Source of the DNA: Candidatus Cloacimonadales bacterium
GTDB lineage: Bacteria; Cloacimonadota; Cloacimonadia; Cloacimonadales; JAFGVF01
Assembly: GCA_963677495.2 (NCBI GenBank)
Contig: CAXXOU010000003.1
Coordinates: 1 to 64,000, forward strand
Reading direction: 5' to 3'
DNA: 64,000 nt
Shown here: positions 1,484-64,000 of the stretch, in pieces
Layout of the letters: the number at the start of each line of letters is the position of its first letter
Position numbering within the stretch: the stretch's first letter is position 1
Made by a program: the position numbers and the translations under genes
The notes under the pieces: model-generated
Database searches by the model: none
What the model was told of the DNA's origin: nothing
The model's input: only the letters and a program-made list of their open reading frames with translations

Positions 1484-3487
1484 ATGAGAACATCAAACTT
1501 CACTCTAGATATTGAGAGACTGAATATCCAAATCAATGATTTGGATGAGCTCTATGCACAGCTCGTTAAATCAGATGACTTGTTTGACTTAATAACTAGT
1601 GATAGAAAACTACATAATATCTTCTTCAAGTGGCTAGAAGGTGCATTCAATGAAAGAAAAGTGCTTATACTCAAAAGCCTTGCAGCATATTATTCTTCAT
1701 TTGGTAGTACATACTTAAAGCAAGTATTCATTCACTACATTTTCTCGGATGCTCCAATAACTTATGGGGATGTGTCAATTGAGTTATCGTTTGATACTAA
1801 TGATTCTTTACAAAAGCTCCAAAGTGAAGTGCAATTATTCTTTGAGCAGTTAGACAAATCCCATTGGGAAGAGTCATTAACAAAAGTAAGATTCCTATTG
1901 TTCCAATTCTCATTCAAGCTCAGATGTTTCTTGGAGCAAGACATTGGAACTACTAAGGCAACATGTATATTCTCAACTATTCAGCAAATCAATCGCTACT
2001 TAAATGATAGTAGTGAACAGGAAAGTGGAGGCTTAGAATTCTCACCGGTACAACATGTGAGAAATAGTGATTGGCAATATAATATGCTTCAATTGCTACA
2101 CAGTGTTTTAGTTAACAGAAAGATCCGAATGCCTGATAATACTGTTCTTGAAACAATTGAAGAAGTTGCAATATTTCTTGTTACTCACCCGAAAGAGTTT
2201 TCTAATGAACTTGTTTATTTTGAGATTAAGACATACTTAGAGATTAAGCTGAAAACCAATATCCATCGTTCATTTACGCTTACAGATTTTCTATTTATTG
2301 CTTTAGAAGATAAGATTGACTATGTGGTTTCACTGAAAGAGATGGGTGTATATTCATTTAATCAGATGGATAATAAAGAGATTGTTGGCTCAAGAATATA
2401 CAACTTTGTAGATGAATTACAAGAGAAAGATGCCTATATATCAATTACAGTAAAGAAATCATTAACGCGATTTTTCAGAGAACAAAACCTTACTGAGAAA
2501 CTGGAAGATTACTACAGAGATATCTCTCTTATTACCAAACATAATACGATGAATGAATTCTTCGAAGCAGATAATCTTTTGCACAGCATTGCAATGGAGT
2601 TAAATATAGCGACTGAGAGCATAAATAATAGTTCTATAGTTTCTTTATCAGATCAGATAAGAGAGAAACACGAAAAGATCTCCAGAAAGCTTAACACTGC
2701 AAACAAGCGATACAAGCGTAAGGCAATTTTTCATAATAGTATATATGTAGTTTGGATCGGATTGGTTCTCAATTGTCTTGTCTCATTGTTATCATTACTT
2801 CTAGTTTCAGAGCATCAACCCAATGACTTGTCTATGATATTTAACAACATTTTGTTTTATCCAGTATTCTTAAAACAAGTGTTATTCTCTTTTCTGCTAT
2901 TCATACTGTATGCTATAATTGTGTTTTCAAAAGATGACATTATTGTGAAACCAACTAAACTGATTATAGGGTTCTTCCTTCCTTTTAACCTTATAGTAAT
3001 ACCTACCCTATCTTATTCAGCATATTACTTACTTTCAAGCTTCACTTCCATTTCTTTTTTTCTTATTCAAAAAAGCGTGCTGGTTATGTACTATTTAACA
3101 CCACTAATTATTATTACTTCTCTTAGTTATAGAGCCCGGTTATTTATGAAAATCAAAGCTAAGCTTGTTAAAGCGGTAGTTATTGGCATTGTGCTTTCTC
3201 CTTTCTTTATTAGTCTTAATCCGCATCTATTGAATAAATTTAGGAGTATTTGCAATCCATATGCAGTTGAGCATTTAAACTACATTTCCATATCAGACAA
3301 AGGTGTTAAGCTTTATGAAAAGGCAGATACTTCCTCAAAGCTTGTTAAGAAGAATTTCAAACCCGGTAAAGCAATAGAGTACAGCTTATACAATGATGAA
3401 TGGGGCATTATTTTTGATAAAGACAAAGAACGGTTTTTCCAGCTAAAAGAGACAGTGAAAACTCCAATGTGGAGGTTAAAACAATGA
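1484..3487 (+). CDS. Hypothetical membrane protein: soluble N-terminus, about 5 TM helices, C-terminal SH3b-like domain
   Basis: 667-aa ORF with hydrophobic segments at ~aa 418-580. C-terminal ISDKGVKLYEKADTSSKLV...WG resembles bacterial SH3. Confidence 0.65.
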   Translation: MRTSNFTLDIERLNIQINDLDELYAQLVKSDDLFDLITSDRKLHNIFFKWLEGAFNERKVLILKSLAAYYSSFGSTYLKQVFIHYIFSDAPITYGDVSIELSFDTNDSLQKLQSEVQLFFEQLDKSHWEESLTKVRFLLFQFSFKLRCFLEQDIGTTKATCIFSTIQQINRYLNDSSEQESGGLEFSPVQHVRNSDWQYNMLQLLHSVLVNRKIRMPDNTVLETIEEVAIFLVTHPKEFSNELVYFEIKTYLEIKLKTNIHRSFTLTDFLFIALEDKIDYVVSLKEMGVYSFNQMDNKEIVGSRIYNFVDELQEKDAYISITVKKSLTRFFREQNLTEKLEDYYRDISLITKHNTMNEFFEADNLLHSIAMELNIATESINNSSIVSLSDQIREKHEKISRKLNTANKRYKRKAIFHNSIYVVWIGLVLNCLVSLLSLLLVSEHQPNDLSMIFNNILFYPVFLKQVLFSFLLFILYAIIVFSKDDIIVKPTKLIIGFFLPFNLIVIPTLSYSAYYLLSSFTSISFFLIQKSVLVMYYLTPLIIITSLSYRARLFMKIKAKLVKAVVIGIVLSPFFISLNPHLLNKFRSICNPYAVEHLNYISISDKGVKLYEKADTSSKLVKKNFKPGKAIEYSLYNDEWGIIFDKDKERFFQLKETVKTPMWRLKQ

Positions 3488-5946
3488 CAGACCAATACAC
3501 AAAATCGTTTCAAGTTGTAATCATGACAGACCTTGTCGGTTCGACAAAGCTCTATGAGACTTATGGAGACACTCATGCTAAGAAGATTGTTGATGAGCAC
3601 GATAGAATACTAGAACCAATAATCGAGAAGTATGATGGAATCACTGTTAAGAAACTTGGAGATGCAATCCTAGCCAGATTCCCTTCAGTAGATAAAAGTT
3701 TGCAAGCATCAATTGAAATCCAAAAACTCTTAAAGGAAACCAATGAAAGGAAAGAAGAAAAGGATAAAATTGTCATCAAAATCGGGATGCATTGGGGTGA
3801 AGTAATTCTACAATCAGGTGATGTATTTGGAGATGTTGTAAACACATCTAAGCGTCTAGAATCGTTAGCTGCAGGATATTTGATCATTGTTTCAGAAGAA
3901 CTGAGAAACAACTGCTCACTTGAACTTAGTTTTGTTCCTATGGGCTCATTCTCTGTTAAAGGTAAAAAGGAACCTGTAAAGACCTATGGAGTTATTTGGG
4001 ATACGTCAGATATCTTGATAACAAAATACGAGACTCGAAAGAAGCAGTTGCAAAAAGAGGAATTCAAACTTAACCAGAAGAAAGAGTTTCATTCCATATC
4101 TCTTGGACACGCCAACAACGCCCCCCTAGAAATAATTACCAACCCACCTGATGTAAAAGTAACACTCAATAAGCAAGTATTGAGTCAAACAACTCCAATT
4201 ACATGTAACTATAAAACAGGAATTACTGAGATTATACTAGAATGTCCCGGCTACAAAACGATAGTCGATAAGATTCTCATTGAAGACAGTATGAAAAACT
4301 CTTTCCAGTTTGAACTTGTAGCACAATTTGCCAGGATTGACCTTACAAATTGTGAGAGCAATATGGACATATACATCAATGATCAATTCCAAGCTCAAAA
4401 GACTCCTTGCATTATTGAAAACTTAACAGCCGGAGAATATACACTTCAGCTTAAAAATAAAAATTTCATTTCTAAGAAGTATAGATTCACTCTCTTCTGG
4501 AACGAAACTAGAAAAGAAGAGTTCAAGGTGTTTAAACCTGTACAAGTCTGCTTGGTTTCGCAATTCAATGAAGTAGATTTCAATATTAGAGAGGTTTCTG
4601 AAGATGATATTGTTAGAGAAAATCTAGAGATTTCTCCTAATAGGCAGTTCATCAAAGGTGTTTCTAAAACAGTTTCTCTAACTCCCGGACAATATCAACT
4701 TACCCCAATTGACTCTGAGTTACCTGATATGATTGTCGATATACCCTATGAAGAGCAATATACTATTGAATACGATCATCAAGTGTGCACGAGGAAACTA
4801 ACAATAGATTATTCGAATAACTATTACAATACCAGTATATCCTTTCTCAAGCAAAAGAATATACTTAAGTTTGATAAATGTCACAAGATACATTGTAATG
4901 TCCCGCCTTGTATAGTATCATTAAAAATCGAATCTATCGGCAAGAGAATCAATAAGTTGATTAATCTGACTGAAGCAGATAAAGATATTGTATATAATGA
5001 TTTATTCAAAGTTAAACCTTCTAAGCATTGGATTAAGTCTACAATTTTAGTATCATTCCTACTTGTCTTAGTCCTGGTACTTTCATTCATCAGCAGTAAT
5101 ATTTTATGGAAAAAGCTGGAAAGAACTAATGATATTAAAAGCATTCAGAGGTTTATGCTAAGCCCCATATCATTGCAGAATCATAAAAATGCAAAACAAC
5201 GACTTGCTGAGTTAGAAATTGAATACTACAATAGAGTAAAGCAATCAGATGACATAATGATATTGCAGTCATACATCTCCTTCTACCCTGAAGGTAAACA
5301 TGTAAATGAATGTATCAAGTTGGTGTTTGAAAAACATGTAAAACAAATGCTAAACGGATGTAAAGTTAGTGGCGTTTGTGAAAATATAGTTAACACAAAA
5401 GATTATCAATCTCTACTAGTCAGTAAGGAACAACAGCTGTATAGAAGGTTCAAGAAGAACCCATCAATTATTAATGCCGAGAAGTATATTACCCTGTTCC
5501 CCGATTCGAATCAGTGCATCGAGATCTTAAAGCTAATACAAAAACCACTTCTGAGAGTTAAGATGAATGAAGAGAATAGATGTTTGTTTGTGGCTTTGTT
5601 TAATCAAAGAAATGGGCTTAAACTTTCTGAAAACGACCTTAAGAAGCTTCAGAAAAAAGAGGAGATGTTTCGCAAGGACTCTCACAACGTGGGCACATTA
5701 CTGTCATCATTAAAATCCGGTATGAATGACTCTCTGGGAAGAAGCTATATCCGAAATGCAAATCCTGATTTAAGAATTCTGTTTCATGAGGAAAACTTGT
5801 CACTATTAGTACAAGGGGGATTAATTTCATTAAAATGGTACTCTTTAAAATACAGATTAGTATTCATTGTAATGAGCTCTATTTTAGCTCTTAGTATTAC
5901 AATTGTATTCCTAGTATCACTTTTTAAGAAGATTTTATCTATCTAG
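3484..5946 (+). CDS. Class III adenylate/guanylate cyclase with PEGA domains and two TM helices
   Basis: Motifs TDLVGST, KKLGDAILA, IGMHWG and DVFGDVVNTSKRLES, then PEGA units (ITNPPDVKV...). ATG 3484 overlaps the upstream TGA (ATGA); RBS GGAGG at 3471. Confidence 0.85.
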   Translation: MTDQYTKSFQVVIMTDLVGSTKLYETYGDTHAKKIVDEHDRILEPIIEKYDGITVKKLGDAILARFPSVDKSLQASIEIQKLLKETNERKEEKDKIVIKIGMHWGEVILQSGDVFGDVVNTSKRLESLAAGYLIIVSEELRNNCSLELSFVPMGSFSVKGKKEPVKTYGVIWDTSDILITKYETRKKQLQKEEFKLNQKKEFHSISLGHANNAPLEIITNPPDVKVTLNKQVLSQTTPITCNYKTGITEIILECPGYKTIVDKILIEDSMKNSFQFELVAQFARIDLTNCESNMDIYINDQFQAQKTPCIIENLTAGEYTLQLKNKNFISKKYRFTLFWNETRKEEFKVFKPVQVCLVSQFNEVDFNIREVSEDDIVRENLEISPNRQFIKGVSKTVSLTPGQYQLTPIDSELPDMIVDIPYEEQYTIEYDHQVCTRKLTIDYSNNYYNTSISFLKQKNILKFDKCHKIHCNVPPCIVSLKIESIGKRINKLINLTEADKDIVYNDLFKVKPSKHWIKSTILVSFLLVLVLVLSFISSNILWKKLERTNDIKSIQRFMLSPISLQNHKNAKQRLAELEIEYYNRVKQSDDIMILQSYISFYPEGKHVNECIKLVFEKHVKQMLNGCKVSGVCENIVNTKDYQSLLVSKEQQLYRRFKKNPSIINAEKYITLFPDSNQCIEILKLIQKPLLRVKMNEENRCLFVALFNQRNGLKLSENDLKKLQKKEEMFRKDSHNVGTLLSSLKSGMNDSLGRSYIRNANPDLRILFHEENLSLLVQGGLISLKWYSLKYRLVFIVMSSILALSITIVFLVSLFKKILSI

Positions 5947-6001
5947 TTGTTTTCGAGTTTGCTACACAGTGCATTTTGCAATCATTTACATCATCGGAAT
6001 C

Positions 6002-6082
6002 ATAGCGACCAAGGGGAGTTGGACTCATAGTGATGTACCTTTGCCATTTTTCGCTATTCGCCCATCTCCCTTTGGTCGCTAT
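6002..6082. repeat. Long imperfect GC-rich palindrome (REP-like)
   Basis: ATAGCGACCAAGGGGAG (6002-6018) pairs with CTCCCTTTGGTCGCTAT (6066-6082), with further inner pairing. Confidence 0.7.
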
Positions 6083-6363
6083 TGCGACAGCTTCTGAATG
6101 CATCTTGATAGATAGTATTGTTTAAGAACGTAGATACTATTTTGACTATCGGTTTAAGGGATCTCTAAACTGCATGGAAAAATATTCAAGGAAATTTAAT
6201 AGAGCTTATAAGTATAGCTTGGATATATTGGAACATTAAAAAATCGTAATTATTCAATAAATATATTGACTATTTATAGATCATCTTAGAAAATCACCTT
6301 ATACTGCGATAGAGTGCTTTGATTTTTCTTAGTGAATCTGATTGGAATATTTTCCAAAGGGGA

Positions 6364-6732
6364 TCAGATTAGCATTTCGAAAGCGTTTTCGATATGTTTA
6401 ACAGAGAATTCATTTGACTCTGAATTGTAGTTACATAGAATAATATCAAGATGGATTTCGAAATCTTCATAATGAGGATATCTTTGGATGAAGTCCATTA
6501 CAGCGAGAGATATTTTTCGTTGTTTAGAATAGGAGATAGCTGTTTGTATTTGTTGAAAAGGGGTATTAGTGCGAGTCTTAACTTCGACGACCACTAAGAC
6601 ATCATCTTTTTTGGCAATTAAATCCAACTCTCCATAACGTGAATGAAAATTTTTGAAAAGGATTTGGTATCCCTTGTGGGATAGGTATTTAAGAGAAATG
6701 ATTTCTCCACGGGTGCCTAAGTTGTTTTTCAT
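6364..6732 (-). CDS. yraN: YraN family (UPF0102) putative nuclease
   Basis: LGTRGE...GYQILFKNFHSRYGELDLIA...VVEVKTR signature. Confidence 0.9.
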   Translation of the reverse strand: MKNNLGTRGEIISLKYLSHKGYQILFKNFHSRYGELDLIAKKDDVLVVVEVKTRTNTPFQQIQTAISYSKQRKISLAVMDFIQRYPHYEDFEIHLDIILCNYNSESNEFSVKHIENAFEMLI

Positions 6733-6850
6733 ATAAACCTCAGTACAATAGAAATAGCTTGACTAATTAATTGTCAATCATATTTTATTACTGATAAAGT
6801 CTGATATATATATTAAATAATGGAATAATAATCCCTAGGAGGGGGAATTG

Positions 6851-7828
6851 ATGAAGAAAATTTACCTTATCGTATCTGTAATGTTTTTCATCTGTTCACT
6901 TGTAGCTGCTCCTTTTACATCTTTAGGATCAGCAATTAGAACACCAAACGGCTATGTAGTGCCACATACTCAGTTTACTGGAACTTTCGCAGCGTATACA
7001 CGTGACGATGGAGAAGGCAAACTCGAAAGCAAAATAGTTGGTGCAGTTTCAGGTGGTCTATGGGACAGAGTTGAAGTAGGCGTTGTTTACACAGATGATT
7101 GTGATGGACTTACTTTTGCTAATGCAAAGGTTAAAGTATTTGAAGAAACACCAAAATTCCCAGCGATCTCAATCGGTGTGGATAATATTGGTTCTTCTAT
7201 CAATGAAGATGCTGATGAAATAATTGATGGATCTAGTGATGTTCAAGAGCATAGTTATTACTCACGCTATTTTGAGAAAAATGCGTTTTATGCTGTTGCC
7301 ACAAAATCAACTGTTATCCGTGGATTACCAGTGTTTAGTTACATTGAAACTGTTGCTTCCGTAGGTTTTGGTTCTGAGCAAAAGTACCAAGGTGTTGGAG
7401 AATTATCCGAAGACTTTAGTGGACTATTTGCATCAGTACTTTTCCGCCCAAACAAGTGGTTTGGTGTAATCGGTGAAGTTGATGGTTCAATGGTTAATGC
7501 CGGATTAGACATTAACTATAATGATTTCGCTTTAAGAATGGCTCTAACCGAATTGGATGAGTACTTTAAAGGTGATGAATCATATGACAAACTGAACTTT
7601 ACTTTTGCTCTTTCATATACGTTCAATGATTACGTTAATGAGAGCAAACAACCAAGAGTAGCAAGATCTAACAAAGAAGCTATCCGCGGAACCAGAGTTA
7701 TACAGAATCAGGATCAATTAGGAGAGACTGATGACCTTCTTCAAGAATTAAGAGCTATCAGAGAAAGAAGACAGAAAGCTCAGCAAGAACTTGAAGATAT
7801 CAGAAGAATTCTCGAAGAGTCTGAATAA
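6851..7828 (+). CDS. Secreted YjbH-like outer-membrane beta-barrel protein with a C-terminal coiled coil; first gene of the Agl-Glt-like operon
   Basis: Signal peptide; IRTPNGYVVP, VEVG, PAISIGVDNI beta-rich core; C-terminal LLQELRAIRERRQKAQQELEDI coil; RBS GGAGG upstream. Confidence 0.7.
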   Translation: MKKIYLIVSVMFFICSLVAAPFTSLGSAIRTPNGYVVPHTQFTGTFAAYTRDDGEGKLESKIVGAVSGGLWDRVEVGVVYTDDCDGLTFANAKVKVFEETPKFPAISIGVDNIGSSINEDADEIIDGSSDVQEHSYYSRYFEKNAFYAVATKSTVIRGLPVFSYIETVASVGFGSEQKYQGVGELSEDFSGLFASVLFRPNKWFGVIGEVDGSMVNAGLDINYNDFALRMALTELDEYFKGDESYDKLNFTFALSYTFNDYVNESKQPRVARSNKEAIRGTRVIQNQDQLGETDDLLQELRAIRERRQKAQQELEDIRRILEESE

Positions 7829-58330: not shown

Positions 58331-58391
58331 GAAATCATAAACAAGGAAAGTATAAGCAAACGATTAACCTCACATGCAATCAGCGGGAAAC

Positions 58392-60608
58392 ATGAAAAAA
58401 CTGAACTTAACATTTTTCTACCTATCATTATTGGTTGGTTTATTCCTTTGGTTACTAGATGCAATCTTAGATTGTTTTTTCTACGAAGGGAATTTCATTC
58501 AAACACTTATTTTGGGTATACCGAGACAAGAACTCTTTATTCGTATATCTGTTCTATTTGTGCTAGGTGTGTTTGGCTTAATAGTCTCACATTATTATAC
58601 CAAATCAAAGCTGTTGAGCCAAATGAATAAACGGAATCAAGAAAGGCTTTCTCGAATGCTAAACCTTTCTCCTATGGGAGTGATCACACTAAACTTTAAT
58701 GGTAATTTTGAGTTCTTTAATAAAGCATTTATTAATACAACCGGTTATCAATTAAGTGATTTAGAAACAATAAATGACTGGTTTGAATTATTATATCCCG
58801 ACACTCAAAGGAGAAAAGCTGTAAGAAAACTTTGGGAAAATGATATTAATCAGGTGAGGTTAGGAAAGAAAGAGATAATAACCTCTGTACAACCGATTAA
58901 CTGTAAAGATGGTTCAGTTGTTTATGCTTCAATATCAGCGTCAATAGTTGAAGAGCAGATAGTATTGTCTTTTCTTGATATAACTGAGATTAAGGAAGCA
59001 GCTCTGAAAGTTGAGCAGCAACAGAAACAATTAAGACAGATAATTAACTTAGTCCCACATTTCATATATGTTGTGGATGCGGATGGGATATATAAACTAG
59101 TTAATAAGGCTGTAGCTGACTTTGTTGGGCTTACTGTTGAAGAACTTGAAGGCAGTAAGAGCTGCGAAGAGCCTGTATCAGATGAAGATGTAAAAAGGTT
59201 TAGAAGTACGAATGAGGAAATATTGTCAGGAAATTGTAGCAAGCTAGAATACTTTGAGACTCTGACTCATAAGGATAACAAATTATTCAATTTCAAAACA
59301 TTGAAGGTACCATTCGACGTAGAAGATGAATCCAAGAAATATGTGCTTGGAGTATCAGTAAACATTACAGATTTGAAAGAAGCCAAGAAAAGTGAAAAGG
59401 ATTTACATAATGTTCTAGAAAACATAGTCCACAATAGCTCAAATATGTTCTACCAGCATGATACAAACTTCAATCTAACTTATGTTAGTCCACAGATTAA
59501 AAATCTTTTGGGCTATGAAGTAGAATATGCGTTAAATAATGGAACGAAGTGTACAACAGATAATCCCATAAATGAAGAGGCGATTATCCATACAAAGAAA
59601 GCAATTGAAACAGGTATAGCACAACCATACTTTGAAATGGAGCTGATACATAAAGATGGTAATATTGTTTGGGTAGAAGTCAGAGAGACACCCTTAATAA
59701 AAGATGGGAAAGTTATTGCTATTGTAGGAGCATTAATTGACATCACTGCTAAAAAAAGACATGAGCTTCAACAGAAGACTTACCAAGAAGACTTGCAAAA
59801 ACAGATTATTGAACGAACAAAAACTCTTGAGGAAAAAACAAACTCCCTAAAAGAATCACAGGTCGCATTAACTTATCTCCTTGAAGATGTCAATGAAGCT
59901 CAGTCCGAGTTAGTAAAGGCTAATGAGGAATTAGTTGCAATGAATGAAGAATTAGAATCTTTCTCATACACTATTTCACACGATTTAAGATCACCCTTAA
60001 GAGCTATAAACGGATTCACAAAGATTCTTAGTGAAGAATATTGCAATAGCTTTGATGAAGAGGGAAAACGCTTGATGAGTATAGTTTGCAATAATGTTAC
60101 AATGATGAGTGATTTAATAAACGACCTTCTCAACTATTCTAAACTAGGTAGAAAGATGATACAGAATAGGGTTATAGATATGAATCAAGTAGTAGAAGTA
60201 GAGCTCGATTTAGCTACAAAGATTAGTGAGAATGATAAACTAAAACTTATCAAGCATAAGCTTCCTCAAGCCAAGGGGGATATTGTCTTAATTAAACAAG
60301 TATGGCAAAACCTTATATCTAATGCAATAAAGTACAGTAGTAAGGTTGAGTTCCCAATAATAGAAATAGGTTCTTTTATAAAAGATGAGCATGTGGTATA
60401 TTTTATTAAAGATAATGGTGTTGGTTTCGATATGAAGTATCATCACAAAATCTTTGGTGTTTTCGAACGTTTGCATTCTCTTCTAGAGTTTGAAGGTACA
60501 GGAGTTGGATTAGCAATTGCATATAGGATTATTCAAAAACATAATGGTAAAATCTGGGCAGAATCAGAACTAAACAAAGCAACTACATTCTATTTTTATA
60601 TAAATTAA
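58392..60608 (+). CDS. PAS-domain sensor histidine kinase
   Basis: 2 TM, 3 PAS, H-box FSYTISHDLRSPLR, N-box QNLISNAIKY, DNGVGF, GTGVGLAI. Confidence 0.94.
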   Translation: MKKLNLTFFYLSLLVGLFLWLLDAILDCFFYEGNFIQTLILGIPRQELFIRISVLFVLGVFGLIVSHYYTKSKLLSQMNKRNQERLSRMLNLSPMGVITLNFNGNFEFFNKAFINTTGYQLSDLETINDWFELLYPDTQRRKAVRKLWENDINQVRLGKKEIITSVQPINCKDGSVVYASISASIVEEQIVLSFLDITEIKEAALKVEQQQKQLRQIINLVPHFIYVVDADGIYKLVNKAVADFVGLTVEELEGSKSCEEPVSDEDVKRFRSTNEEILSGNCSKLEYFETLTHKDNKLFNFKTLKVPFDVEDESKKYVLGVSVNITDLKEAKKSEKDLHNVLENIVHNSSNMFYQHDTNFNLTYVSPQIKNLLGYEVEYALNNGTKCTTDNPINEEAIIHTKKAIETGIAQPYFEMELIHKDGNIVWVEVRETPLIKDGKVIAIVGALIDITAKKRHELQQKTYQEDLQKQIIERTKTLEEKTNSLKESQVALTYLLEDVNEAQSELVKANEELVAMNEELESFSYTISHDLRSPLRAINGFTKILSEEYCNSFDEEGKRLMSIVCNNVTMMSDLINDLLNYSKLGRKMIQNRVIDMNQVVEVELDLATKISENDKLKLIKHKLPQAKGDIVLIKQVWQNLISNAIKYSSKVEFPIIEIGSFIKDEHVVYFIKDNGVGFDMKYHHKIFGVFERLHSLLEFEGTGVGLAIAYRIIQKHNGKIWAESELNKATTFYFYIN

Positions 60609-60609
60609 T

Positions 60610-62157
60610 ATGAGGTACAGTATGATTGATAACTATCAAACCAAATATGATGCTCTATTCAATCAAAACTTGGTTGGTATGATATACACTAATATACAAG
60701 GGGACTTTAAAGAAGTTAATGATAAATTTGCTCACATGTTAGGTTACACTAAAGATGAGCTAATCAATAGGAACTTTAAAGAAATCACTCACCCGGAAGA
60801 TTTAAATCTAAGTGATGAGAGTATTATGCAACTTGAGAAAGGACTTATTGATACTTTTACAATCGATAAACGCTATTTACACAAAAATGGCTCTCCAATT
60901 TGGGTAAGACTTCATGTTAAAGAAATAAAATCTAAGGATAAAGATGATAGAACTATTTTAGCTATAGTTTTAGATATATCTGAACAGGTTAAATGTAAGA
61001 ATAGATTGGAGAAGAATATCCAAGCATTAACAACTCCCTTGGAAAATCTCGAGAGCATAGAGTTTCAGACCCTATTCGATGTTAATGATATACAGCAGAT
61101 TCAAGATATTTTTTCTGATTCTACAGGGGTTGCTTCTATTATAACATATCCTTGTGGACAACCCATAACTAAGCCAAGTAATTTTAGAAGAGTTTGTTCT
61201 GATATCATAAGATCAACTGAAGAGGGGTTTAAAAGATGCAAGCATTCTGATTCATATATTGGTAAAATGAACCAGGATAAAGCGAACGTAATTGAATGCT
61301 TATCATGCGGATTATGGGATGCCGGTGTGAATATTTCTGTAGGTGGAAAACACTTAGCTAATTGGCTCATCGGCCAAGTTAGAGATAAAGATGTTGATAA
61401 AGAAAGACTTATTGAATATAGTAAGGTTATTGGAGTTAATGAAGATGAGCTTATAAAAGCTTATTTAGAAGTGCCAATAATGGAACTACAGCAGTTTGAA
61501 AAAATAGCAAAAGCCCTATTTATAGTTTCTCAACAACTTTCCAAGATAGCGTATCAAAACCTACAACAAGCTCGTCTTATTGCCAAACTTCAGCGTATAG
61601 AAGAAGATCTCAAGAAAAATGAGGATAATCTCTCTAAAGTACAAGAAATTAGCAGATTAGGAGTTTGGGAGATTGACACTGAAACAAATGTCATTACTTG
61701 GTCGGAGCAAAACTATAAAAACTTTGGTGTCAAATATGGGGAGCCAGTTGACTATGATAGATTTCTTAGTACAATACATCCGGAAGATGTTGAATATGTT
61801 AGTAACAAATGGAATAAGGCTCTTCAAGGTGAAGATTATGACATAGAACATAGAATTATTATTGATAATCATGTGGAATGGGTCAGAGAGAAGGCTGAAG
61901 TTTTCTTTGATGAGATAGGAAAACCATTAAAGGCAATTGGCTTCACACAAAACATAAGTGAGAGAAAATTAATAGAGTTAGAATTAAAGAAATATAAAGA
62001 CTCCTTAGAAGAGATTGTTCATGCCAGAACTCATGAATTAGAGGAAAAGAACAAGGAGTTAGAGCGTTACAACAACCTGTTTGTTGGTAGAGAGTTTAGG
62101 ATAAAAGAGTTGAAAGATAAACTCAAAGAGCTTGAATCTAAATTAAACAAGAACTAG
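60610..62157 (+). CDS. Cytoplasmic PAS-PocR-PAS sensor with no output domain
   Basis: PAS (ITHPEDL), PocR (GVASII...C..SD...CLSCGLWDAGV.I..GG.HLANWLIGQV), PAS_3; ends YNNLFVGREFRIKEL. Confidence 0.87.
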   Translation: MRYSMIDNYQTKYDALFNQNLVGMIYTNIQGDFKEVNDKFAHMLGYTKDELINRNFKEITHPEDLNLSDESIMQLEKGLIDTFTIDKRYLHKNGSPIWVRLHVKEIKSKDKDDRTILAIVLDISEQVKCKNRLEKNIQALTTPLENLESIEFQTLFDVNDIQQIQDIFSDSTGVASIITYPCGQPITKPSNFRRVCSDIIRSTEEGFKRCKHSDSYIGKMNQDKANVIECLSCGLWDAGVNISVGGKHLANWLIGQVRDKDVDKERLIEYSKVIGVNEDELIKAYLEVPIMELQQFEKIAKALFIVSQQLSKIAYQNLQQARLIAKLQRIEEDLKKNEDNLSKVQEISRLGVWEIDTETNVITWSEQNYKNFGVKYGEPVDYDRFLSTIHPEDVEYVSNKWNKALQGEDYDIEHRIIIDNHVEWVREKAEVFFDEIGKPLKAIGFTQNISERKLIELELKKYKDSLEEIVHARTHELEEKNKELERYNNLFVGREFRIKELKDKLKELESKLNKN

Positions 62158-62246
62158 TTTCAGAAGTCTCGAATAGAGAAAACTGAAAAAGTAATTGACT
62201 ATAAACCAAGTTTAACTGAAAAGTCAGTTACAATGAATAAATATTT

Positions 62247-62406
62247 GCAGGGAGAACATCAGATGTTCAAACGTTATTATTGAAAATGACAAATTAAGCT
62301 ACAGCCAGTTTGGTTGTATTCAAAACAATTAACAGCATAACCCTGCGTTAGTTAGTCATTTCTTATGATGTTTCGCAGGTGTGCGAAATATAAGAGAGGT
62401 GACTAA
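62247..62406 (+). promoter_or_regulatory. Structured 5' leader (riboswitch-like) with an RBS-sequestering hairpin
   Basis: P1 GCAGGG/CCCTGC closes three hairpins. TTAGTCATTTCTTAT pairs with ATAAGAGAGGTGACTAA, covering the RBS and reaching the start codon. Confidence 0.55.
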
Positions 62407-63674
62407 TGTCTTCTAATTATTATCCCCTATGGTCTAAACTGGGTTTAGATCTTGAAACACATGATGCTTTACTCGCAGCCTTAGGTAGTGGGTATGAGAG
62501 TGTATTCCTTAATCAAAAGAACCGTCCTGCAGGGATGGAGTACTTTGATTTTGTTATGTCTGAAGTTCATGGACTAAGGATTAAAGAGATTGATGATGCT
62601 AGAGAACAAGGTAAGCTTGTTGTTGGATCATTCTGTGTATTTGTTCCTGAAGAACTAATACTAGCTGTAGATGGCGTGTCTGTAGGTCTATGCGCAGGTG
62701 CAGAGTTTGGCTTTGATTTAGCTGAACAACATATTCCACGTAACACATGTGCTTTAATCAAATCTGCATTTGGTTTCAAACTTACTAAAGTTTGTCCCTA
62801 CATGGAAACCTCTGACATCATTGTTGGAGAAAACACATGTGATGGTAAGAAGAAAGCTTATGAAGAATTTGCAAAACTTGAGCCTAAACTATATGTTATG
62901 GATTTACCACAAACAAAGTCTGATTCCGGTAAAGCTCTTCTCAAAGCTGAGTATATCAAGTTTATCCAGCTATTAGAAGAGAAATCAGGTAAAAAAATAA
63001 CTCTTGAATCTCTTACAAAAGCTATTGAGACTGTAAATAATAAACGTAAAGCTTTAGCTAGACTAAACAACTTAAGAAAGCTGTCCCCATCTCCTATCTC
63101 AGGACTTGATGCACTGCTAATCAATCAGGTCTTTTTCTATGATGATCCTCTAAGATTTACAGATTCAGTAAACAAGATCTGCGATACTCTAGAAGAGAAA
63201 GTAACAGATTCCCAATCAGATAAGCCTAGACTTATTGTTTCCGGGTGCCCAATGGCTGTACCAAACTGGAAACTTCCATCTATCATTGAAACTAGTGGTG
63301 CTGTAATTGTAGGAGAAGAATCGTGTGTCGGAGAGCGTGGGGCAAGAAACATTACAGAATCAAAAGCAGATACTCTTGAGCAGCTGGTTGATAATATTGT
63401 TGATAGATATTTCAAGAACGATTGTGCCATCTTTACTCCAAACGTTGAAAGAACAGAGCATATAAAAGAGATGGTTAAAAAATATAATGCTGATGGTGTT
63501 GTACATTACTCATTACAGTTCTGCCAGCCTTATGATATAGAGAGCAGAAGTGTTGAAGAGGAACTTGAAAAGAATGATATCCCAACTCTCAATATTGTAA
63601 CTGACTATAGCCAGGAAGATGTTGGCCAGTTGAAAACACGTATTGAAGCATTTATTGAAAGAATTAAGGATTGA
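62406..63674 (+). CDS. Double-cubane-cluster protein (DCCP-type anaerobic reductase, 2-hydroxyacyl-CoA dehydratase D family)
   Basis: LGLDLETHD...NRP..M.YFD.V..EVHG.RI N-terminus; eight Cys in FCV, GLC, NTC, VCP, TCDGKKK, ESC, DCA and FCQ; C-terminal GQLKTRIEAF. Confidence 0.88.
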   Translation: MSSNYYPLWSKLGLDLETHDALLAALGSGYESVFLNQKNRPAGMEYFDFVMSEVHGLRIKEIDDAREQGKLVVGSFCVFVPEELILAVDGVSVGLCAGAEFGFDLAEQHIPRNTCALIKSAFGFKLTKVCPYMETSDIIVGENTCDGKKKAYEEFAKLEPKLYVMDLPQTKSDSGKALLKAEYIKFIQLLEEKSGKKITLESLTKAIETVNNKRKALARLNNLRKLSPSPISGLDALLINQVFFYDDPLRFTDSVNKICDTLEEKVTDSQSDKPRLIVSGCPMAVPNWKLPSIIETSGAVIVGEESCVGERGARNITESKADTLEQLVDNIVDRYFKNDCAIFTPNVERTEHIKEMVKKYNADGVVHYSLQFCQPYDIESRSVEEELEKNDIPTLNIVTDYSQEDVGQLKTRIEAFIERIKD

Positions 63675-63729: not shown

Positions 63730-64000
63730 ATGTTATTTGGTGGTTTGGATATAGGATCAAGAACAATCAAACTTGTGCTAGTAGAGAATAACGAAATTGT
63801 TTCTCAAGAAGTAATGAAAAACACATTCGATAAGAAGTTCATTAAAGAGGGACTGGTCGGTTCATATGATATTGACCACTTGACCATAACCGGTTATGGT
63901 CGCCATCTTTTTGATAATGAAGAGAACTGTAGTATTATCACAGAGATAAAAGCATTTTCACTTGGTATTCATCATCTCTTTCCTGAATGTAGAACAATAC
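63730..64000 (+). CDS. ASKHA-type 4Fe-4S ATPase activator (HgdC/BadF / DCCP-reductase-like), runs off the window end
   Basis: RBS GGAG; MLFGGLDIGSRTIKLVL...TGYGR...TEIKAF..G..HLFPECRTI (translated by hand). Confidence 0.88.
   Translation, partial: MLFGGLDIGSRTIKLVLVENNEIVSQEVMKNTFDKKFIKEGLVGSYDIDHLTITGYGRHLFDNEENCSIITEIKAFSLGIHHLFPECRTI

Follow-up and report, generated by a model that had tools for sequence, protein, structure and literature searches.

The window analyzed here, the first 64,000 nt of contig CAXXOU010000003.1 from a Candidatus Cloacimonadales bacterium (assembly GCA_963677495.2), closes with an operon in which a structured 5' leader precedes a gene for a double-cubane cluster protein (DCCP), followed by a gene for an activase ATPase. 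The activase gene is the last of the operon, genes beyond it lying on the opposite strand, and the leader is single-copy in the 3.4-Mb genome that holds the window (G000, whose + strand supplies the window coordinates). The original prediction took this leader for a new translational riboswitch controlling a double-cubane enzyme. The family matches of the downstream protein (Table 1) bear out the enzyme, and a conserved, structured, cis-acting leader that sequesters the ribosome-binding site of the DCCP gene is indeed in place; a ligand-binding aptamer is what the related leaders fail to support, the supposed junction consisting of a Shine-Dalgarno (SD) sequence, an ATG, six codons and the triplets UGA-AAA-UGA. 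What is sensed is more likely the capacity to decode selenocysteine, as gauged by the ribosome, and less likely a metabolite detected by the RNA itself.

The junction triplets belong to a short open reading frame (ORF) with an SD of its own, GGGAG (62250-62254), 8 nt before the ATG, which is interrupted by two in-frame UGA codons and runs on past them to a TAA. A hairpin resembling a bacterial selenocysteine insertion sequence (SECIS) follows the second UGA, and just beyond the ORF the SD of the DCCP gene is shut in a long hairpin. We propose, with a probability of roughly 55% and on the strength of these sequence features and their conservation, that the leader is a putative selenocysteine-decoding ORF whose two UGAs and insertion hairpin gate translation of the DCCP gene.

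Table 1. Positions of the leader elements and neighboring features in the window
Feature	Position	Strand	Details
-35-like box TTGACT	62195..62200	+	TTGAC lies 52-63 nt upstream of P1 in 5/5 leaders
P1, 5' strand, GCAGGG	62247..62252	+	Pairs with 62341-46; overlaps the leader ORF SD GGGAG (62250-62254)
Start-codon hairpin GAACAT-CAG-ATGTTC	62254..62268 (62254-59/62263-68)	+	Leader ORF start codon (62263-62265) in the 3' arm
Leader ORF MFKRYY-U-K-U-QIKLQPVWLYSKQLTA-stop	62263..62340	+	25 codons, translated with TGA = U; UGAs at 62281-62283 and 62287-62289; stop TAA at 62338-62340
Hairpin GTTATT/AATGAC	62273-78/62285-90	+	In the minimum-energy fold
SECIS-like hairpin TACAGCCA-GTT-TGGTTGTA	62300..62318 (62300-07/62311-18)	+	Begins 10 nt after the second UGA
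P1, 3' strand, CCCTGC	62341..62346	+	Just past the leader ORF stop
SD-sequestering hairpin, 14+10 bp	62351..62407	+	Outer helix 62351-64/62394-62407; inner hairpin 62368-77/62382-91
DCCP gene	62406..63674	+	422 aa; PF06050, E 2.9e-117; NF040772 double_cubane, 460.6 bits vs cut-off 350
Activase ATPase gene, start	63730..64000	+	Full gene 248 aa; closes the operon; PF01869, E 1.7e-52

Both the minimum-energy and the centroid folds of the RNA from 62240 to 62420 (+ strand) reproduce the architecture of the original prediction, with P1 and all of its hairpins present. The fold energy is -55.3 kcal/mol, compared with -32.9 +/- 3.6 in 200 dinucleotide shuffles (z -6.16; 0 shuffles as low), whereas the minus strand gives a z of only -2.48, a difference that fits G-U pairs and an RNA made from the + strand. 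The claim that a long hairpin buries the ribosome-binding site up to the start codon agrees with the fold, in which the outer helix takes in the DCCP SD GAGAGG (62394-99) along with the A and T of the start codon. Rfam (Rfam 15) likewise gave no known riboswitch class, with 0 matches at the gathering score over the window and 0 at E <= 10 over 62100-62480.

Pair counts were taken from an alignment (A6) of five distinct leader sequences, those of G000, its relatives G003, G096 and G062, and a metagenomic variant, L114. Compensatory changes are found in 3/8 pairs of the SECIS-like hairpin and in 2/11 pairs of the outer helix around the DCCP SD. P1 is paired in 100% of cells, 5 of its 6 pairs never varying; the start-codon hairpin is paired in 96.6%, with one-sided changes only, and 7 of the 10 pairs of the inner hairpin are invariant. 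Covariation among homologs thus supports two of the predicted elements, with P1 nearly invariant and the GTTATT/AATGAC hairpin unsupported, the latter showing 0 compensatory changes and 5/30 broken cells, no better than shuffles or a slid register. P1 pairs the SD of the leader ORF with the end of that ORF, and its CCCTGC letters are kept even though the reading frame across them varies from leader to leader and in G000 they fall beyond the stop, which argues that P1 is selected as RNA and not as peptide. The predicted switch, in which AAATGAC would pair with the anti-SD GTCATTT, does not survive the comparison, as the pairing is lost in L114 (anti-SD GTCACGTT), weakened by AAATGAG in G096 and L114, and absent from folds with the SD open.

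Forcing the DCCP SD open costs 9.1 kcal/mol in the window and 9.1-12.8 kcal/mol across the five leaders, and the equilibrium probability that the SD is unpaired is 0.026 in the window and 0.002-0.026 across leaders, but 0.20 in L114. No mutually exclusive fold linking the upstream domain to the SD hairpin was found, the upstream fold being unchanged with the SD forced open in all five leaders. The costly opening and the unchanged upstream fold are unlike a thermodynamic riboswitch and resemble a site opened by a translating ribosome.

The most conserved stretch of the leader, present in all five, runs from GGGAG over 7-8 nt to the ATG, six codons and TGA-AAA/AGA-TGA. In each of them the frame also stays open through both UGAs, for 18-24 codons past the first and 16-22 past the second, in AT-rich DNA. 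The ORF ends in ...HAASLR in G003 and G096, in ...YAIPCGS in G062 and in ...SAVPCA in L114, and in these four leaders only 1-2 nt separate its stop from the anti-SD (AGUCA); in G000, the next in-frame stop after 62338 is a TAG at 62353. The leader peptide matches no NCBIfam or Pfam family at E <= 10. Divergent versions precede DCCP in two more genomes of the order, reading MVYYLPNR-U-R-U-... in G040 and MYHRS-U-FIDARPVRS... in G011.

The machinery for selenocysteine is encoded in these genomes: tRNA-Sec, SelB and SelA all pass their curated cut-offs in G000, G003, G096, G062 and G040. The G000 selD gene, whose product also passes its family cut-off, has one in-frame TGA, followed after 11 nt by the hairpin GGGACC-GGG-GGUCC, a spacing that agrees with the 10 nt of the leader hairpin, and the selD hairpin resembles those of the wider leader family described below. 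selD is the sole SECIS control, since among the candidates sought in G000 GrdA gave no match (nor did it in control genomes) and Fdh-alpha only a 26-bit fragment. As a separate observation, in an assembly labelled Leptospira the DCCP gene is followed at 53 nt by a tRNA-Sec gene (L035, 2819-2907; 54 bits, above the gathering score), and a weaker tRNA-Sec match follows DCCP at another locus (L015, 3594-3670; 28.6 bits, below the gathering score).

Covariance models of the upstream domain (R1, then R2) were used beside blastn to find relatives of the leader. R1 returned full-length leaders in G000, G003, G096 and G062 from an order sample of 151 genomes, while R2 returned G096 and G062 from 62 genomes of one family and no further full-length copy from a phylum sample of 151 genomes; blastn against the whole order sample of 203 genomes found G000 and G003, of the same genus, and G096 and G062, of another family. 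A metagenome pattern scan yielded 20 stretches, two of them real, namely the new variant L114 and L126, which has the same sequence as G062. The other 18 were unrelated coding sequence. Weak R1 and R2 matches in L096-L113, with no DCCP nearby, were treated as noise, and short blastn hits (23-42 nt) in 9 other genomes of the order were put down to chance. The leader ORF is kept in every copy (G003, G096, G062/L126 and L114, as in G000), each directly upstream of a DCCP gene, and the genes farther upstream differ in every leader-bearing genome, so that the conserved unit is leader, DCCP and activase.

A related leader is common outside this clade, occurring in about 21 of 78 listed DCCP upstream regions from other phyla. 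Its layout starts with a short ORF, a UGA and, 10-11 nt on, a hairpin rich in GC, and continues with a conserved tail, an anti-SD, a terminator-like hairpin and an SD, with MRKRAQLFVPLD-U-EAYREPGWLPASTVFAVSPP-stop as an example of the ORF; Rfam at E <= 1 gave no family on 16 of these leaders. Frame 0 after the UGA is open for at least 15 codons in 28/28 leaders, compared with 19/28 and 14/28 for the other two frames. A model built solely from 22 leaders of other phyla (R3), containing no sequence of the window's clade, matched 86 times across 96 genomes of one order, 50 of which had at least one match. In all 31 fresh matches analyzed the model UGA is a TGA followed by exactly 20 codons to the stop, and the stop at that fixed position varies over 38 distinct sequences (TAA in 27, TGA in 8, TAG in 3). 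The synonymous fraction of single-base codon differences after the UGA is 0.45 in frame 0 vs 0.36 and 0.22 in the others, and before the UGA 0.36 in the UGA frame vs 0.20 and 0.26; the compared pairs are related, and hence we attach no probability to this excess. Differences in close pairs fall 22:14:34 at codon positions 1, 2 and 3. Proline is the last residue in 21/32 ORFs, and a C-terminal proline is a slow-termination context.

The geometry of the wider family is also that of an ORF ending near a sequestered SD: the median distance from the stop to the first base of the anti-SD is 12 nt, and in 27/31 it is 15 nt or less. RNAalifold on 18 leaders returned the post-UGA hairpin and an anti-SD:SD helix around an inner hairpin, with compensatory changes in 9/23 pairs, and no P1-like closing helix; antiterminator pairing, sought by eye, gave nothing consistent. 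R3 recognizes the window at 62281-62405 (24 bits, E 8.5e-4), G003 (33 bits, E 4.9e-6) and G096 (32 bits, E 8.6e-6). These three alignments are in register, the model UGA falling on the second UGA (62287-89), the hairpin on 62300-18 and the tail on ...CGCUGCUUCCCUGCG.UAA, and the window site is the only R3 match at E <= 0.5 in the whole G000 genome.

Copies of the leader are also found before genes other than DCCP. One Spirochaetota assembly has four, before a DCCP gene, a rhodanese-domain gene, a small ORF with an FdhA-like gene, and a small ORF with HdrA-like and MvhD genes; the last three are paralogous selenocysteine leaders packed into 4.6 kb (L166 of genome G227, 2479-7036), and the ORFs that follow the leaders there share an MLNN... 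start, as if leader and gene head had been duplicated together. Another genome carries a second leader copy before an HdrA-like gene. At six further loci (L173, L181, L183, L193, L195 and L197), inspection by eye found only 24-36 codons of a DCCP-like N-terminus after the leader, then a stop, and such loci look like decayed or re-used cassettes of leader and gene head copied before other genes. The paralogous copies before rhodanese, FdhA-like and HdrA-like/MvhD genes indicate that the element behaves as a control cassette.

If the leader works as we propose, the transcript would start upstream of P1 and a ribosome would load at GGGAG/ATG (62250/62263) before P1 and the start-codon hairpin close, these two structures limiting leader translation to a co-transcriptional window. 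The ribosome would translate six codons to UGA-AAA-UGA, where SelB with Sec-tRNA(Sec) on the 62300-18 hairpin would allow both UGAs to be read as selenocysteine. Having decoded them, it would reach the stop at 62338, cover the 3' strand of P1 and arrive at the foot of the SD-sequestering hairpin, and opening of that hairpin by the ribosome would let another ribosome start on DCCP. With selenocysteine short, termination at a UGA some 60 nt upstream would leave the stable hairpin shut and no DCCP would be made. A terminator scan of the window found none, so control would be translational only. Selenium would then turn DCCP on, a direction of control that, like the insertion of selenocysteine and the unmasking of the SD, we infer from the arrangement of the elements. 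A stronger version, for which we would offer even odds, is that the leader is a dedicated selenium sensor in which a tandem-UGA ORF with its own SECIS permits DCCP synthesis only at high decoding capacity, the same device marking out a selenium regulon in several phyla.

Several observations weigh against selenocysteine decoding or against the proposed unmasking. In G000 the ORF stop falls short of the helix by 10 nt and of AGUCA by 13 nt, so that ribosome contact would be marginal and unmasking less direct than in the four relatives. One hairpin would have to serve two UGAs 6 nt apart, and the hairpin loops of G096 (AGGAG) and L114 (UGGA) are without the G-U step common in most others. P1 shows no covariation. 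SelA is present in all 10 genomes tested in the order, leader-bearing or not (the five named above and five more), and therefore the phyletic pattern cannot separate carriers from non-carriers. In the wider family the synonymous excess is modest and, besides coming from related pairs, is confounded by RNA-structure constraints; R3 has no match to G062 or L114 at E <= 1, and its genome-wide run missed G096. At one locus (L047, ~1375) the G run of the hairpin carries one extra base, which puts the leader ORF out of the frame of all its relatives; this is either a homopolymer assembly error or a broken copy and evidence against coding. A motif scan of 85 DCCP upstream regions found no variants with cysteine in place of selenocysteine, which removes the usual check on a selenoprotein, although their absence fits a leader in which the UGA itself is the sensor. 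The case for selenocysteine insertion comes from sequence throughout.

An expression-control element in the 5' region of the E. coli selAB mRNA, a SECIS-like structure, acts by binding SelB and is not known to involve UGA decoding. By analogy, the UGAs of our leader could be plain stops ending a six-residue peptide, MFKRYY, with the hairpin a SECIS-like site through which SelB or another factor regulates without selenocysteine insertion. Conservation of the SD, the ATG, the six codons and the UGA, together with covariation in the hairpin, would be expected equally of such an arrangement, tandem in-frame UGAs could be a fail-safe stop, and the tail peptides of the leaders of the window's type (type C) are poorly conserved. 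We nevertheless consider it unlikely, because the frame is open past the UGAs in every leader compared (5/5 here, 28/28 overall), the wider family fixes its stop at +21 codons while varying among TAA, TAG and TGA, that frame has the largest share of synonymous differences past the UGA, and the enrichment of C-terminal proline (21/32) makes sense only with a translated tail.

Selenocysteine decoding would also be expected if the ORF encodes a genuine small selenoprotein, carrying a U-K-U motif and having Cys-rich relatives (e.g., MFRCFCURU), that acts alongside DCCP, say in the handling of metals or chalcogens, and is translationally coupled to it with no sensing. The same ORF and SECIS evidence applies, relatives have cores rich in Cys and selenocysteine (CUKU, CFCURU), genes for a cysteine desulfurase and a TusA-DsrE protein follow the activase in G096, and, in the accessible part of a study by Haft and Gwadz (10.1101/2022.07.06.499078), DCCPs co-occur statistically with a selenoprotein system. 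Against this, the peptides differ strongly between clades except in the part encoding the hairpin, four paralogous copies stand before unrelated genes in one genome, the 85 DCCP upstream regions hold no Cys-containing homologues, no Pfam or NCBIfam family matches, and the platform hiding the SD of the next gene is conserved along with the ORF. Taken together, the divergent peptides, the lack of Cys-for-Sec replacements and of a protein family, and the varied downstream genes favor a control device, and a working selenoprotein seems improbable to us.

Least probable is the metabolite-binding translational riboswitch of the original prediction, in which P1, the hairpins and the junction would form an aptamer. 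A strong strand-specific fold, a P1 that closes a three-way junction and keeps its 3' strand whatever the reading frame, the absence of a matching Rfam class and a CCCUGCG for which CGCAGG in the inner hairpin would be a conceivable partner (seen by eye, both invariant and so beyond covariation) are in its favor, but the SD, start codon, codons, UGAs and SECIS account for the conservation of the junction, neither the 62273-78/62285-90 hairpin nor the switch pairing is conserved, no alternative fold frees an SD whose opening costs 9-13 kcal/mol, and the consensus fold of the wider family has no P1-like helix.

Gene control by leader peptides is familiar from trpL and hisL attenuation in E. coli and from the SD unmasking of secM-secA and ermCL-ermC. 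Like those systems, the leader described here places a short ORF with its own SD before the gene, with tandem codons that would report on one charged tRNA, and the position of the ribosome would set the structure of downstream RNA in which the SD is sequestered by default. Unlike them, its regulatory codons would be UGAs read by way of a SECIS hairpin and SelB, so that the signal would be selenocysteine or selenium, the window has no terminator, and success in decoding, rather than stalling, would switch the gene on. With bacterial SECIS elements of the E. coli fdhF type, and with that of the selD gene in the same genome, it shares an in-frame UGA, a hairpin 10-11 nt on with G first or second in the loop, and the presence of the machinery, whereas its host ORF is only 25 codons long, belongs to no protein family, has two UGAs and lies in a 5' leader, and its hairpin sequence differs from that of selD. 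The selAB element resembles it as a leader SECIS-type hairpin tying expression to the selenocysteine system, but here in-frame UGAs stand at the right distance and the open frame beyond them is conserved. A parallel in which selenium itself is read is found in Treponema primitia, where selenium controls transcription of fdhF(Sec) via translation coupling at the UGA inside the gene (Matson et al. 2013, PMC3892789). As far as the accessible part of that paper goes, the two cases are alike in that a ribosome reads the selenium supply at a UGA/SECIS site and affects downstream expression; they differ in that the Treponema UGA lies in the regulated gene and acts on transcript elongation, where the present leader offers a separate mini-ORF for a gene without a UGA, and no leader is described in that part of Matson et al. 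2013 (PMC3892789).

The signal sensed by such a leader would be of a new kind. Known leader-peptide sensors respond to standard amino acids or to certain small molecules, and we found no report of one that reads selenocysteine supply via UGA recoding; nor did the literature on selenocysteine leaders or attenuators and on double-cubane proteins yield a description of a leader ORF with selenocysteine codons. A 2020 review calls the physiological role of DCCPs unknown (PMC7317905, in its accessible part), and Haft and Gwadz state that no DCCP-selenium connection is known, the terms "leader," "small selenoprotein" and "selenopeptide" being absent from the accessible part of their text (10.1101/2022.07.06.499078). 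A selenium-gated leader before DCCP genes would be a testable lead on DCCP function, namely whether selenium switches the enzyme on. If it does, the orphan double-cubane reductases would work in selenium-dependent chemistry and the device would define a selenium regulon. Gene callers miss mini-ORFs and hairpins of this kind, and Rfam, Pfam and NCBIfam have no entry for them, yet the wider form is present in over half of the genomes of one order (50/96).

No convincing -10 element accompanies the TTGACT box, a consensus promoter scan did not call the box, and promoter-like sites in that scan were no commoner than in shuffles. Between the box and P1 lies a small hairpin (62214-62229, e.g., AACTGA-AAAG-TCAGTT) that has counterparts of different sequence at the same position in G003, G096, G062 and L114, and that may either be a stem-loop at the 5' end of the transcript or have arisen by chance in AT-rich sequence.

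The window encodes two sensor proteins immediately before the leader (58374-62157), a PAS histidine kinase of 744 aa and a 515-aa PAS-PocR-PAS protein (PocR E 2.9e-50), both of which are probably outside the conserved unit, since the upstream neighbors differ in the four relatives. The DCCP-activase pair of G096 (L147, 1250-3277, minus strand) is followed by a class-V aminotransferase gene, of the cysteine desulfurase or selenocysteine lyase type, and the TusA-DsrE fusion gene mentioned above, which are sulfur or selenium relay genes. Among the wider DCCP loci, a strong R3 match (L038, 1116-1251; 51 bits) does not adjoin the DCCP gene but is set 250 nt upstream of it, and a Moco/tungsten riboswitch (L025, 1065-1208, minus strand; RF01055, 56 bits) lies some 150 nt before a DCCP leader, on the other strand, and presumably serves a divergent gene. 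Eight Smithella/Syntrophus-type DCCP loci (L012, L020, L026, L029, L030, L032, L037 and L057) have another conserved element upstream of DCCP, TTCCTTTTATTCATTGGCG, which reads ...IPFIHWR... in one frame, is without a UGA or hairpin, and may be a second kind of DCCP leader peptide.

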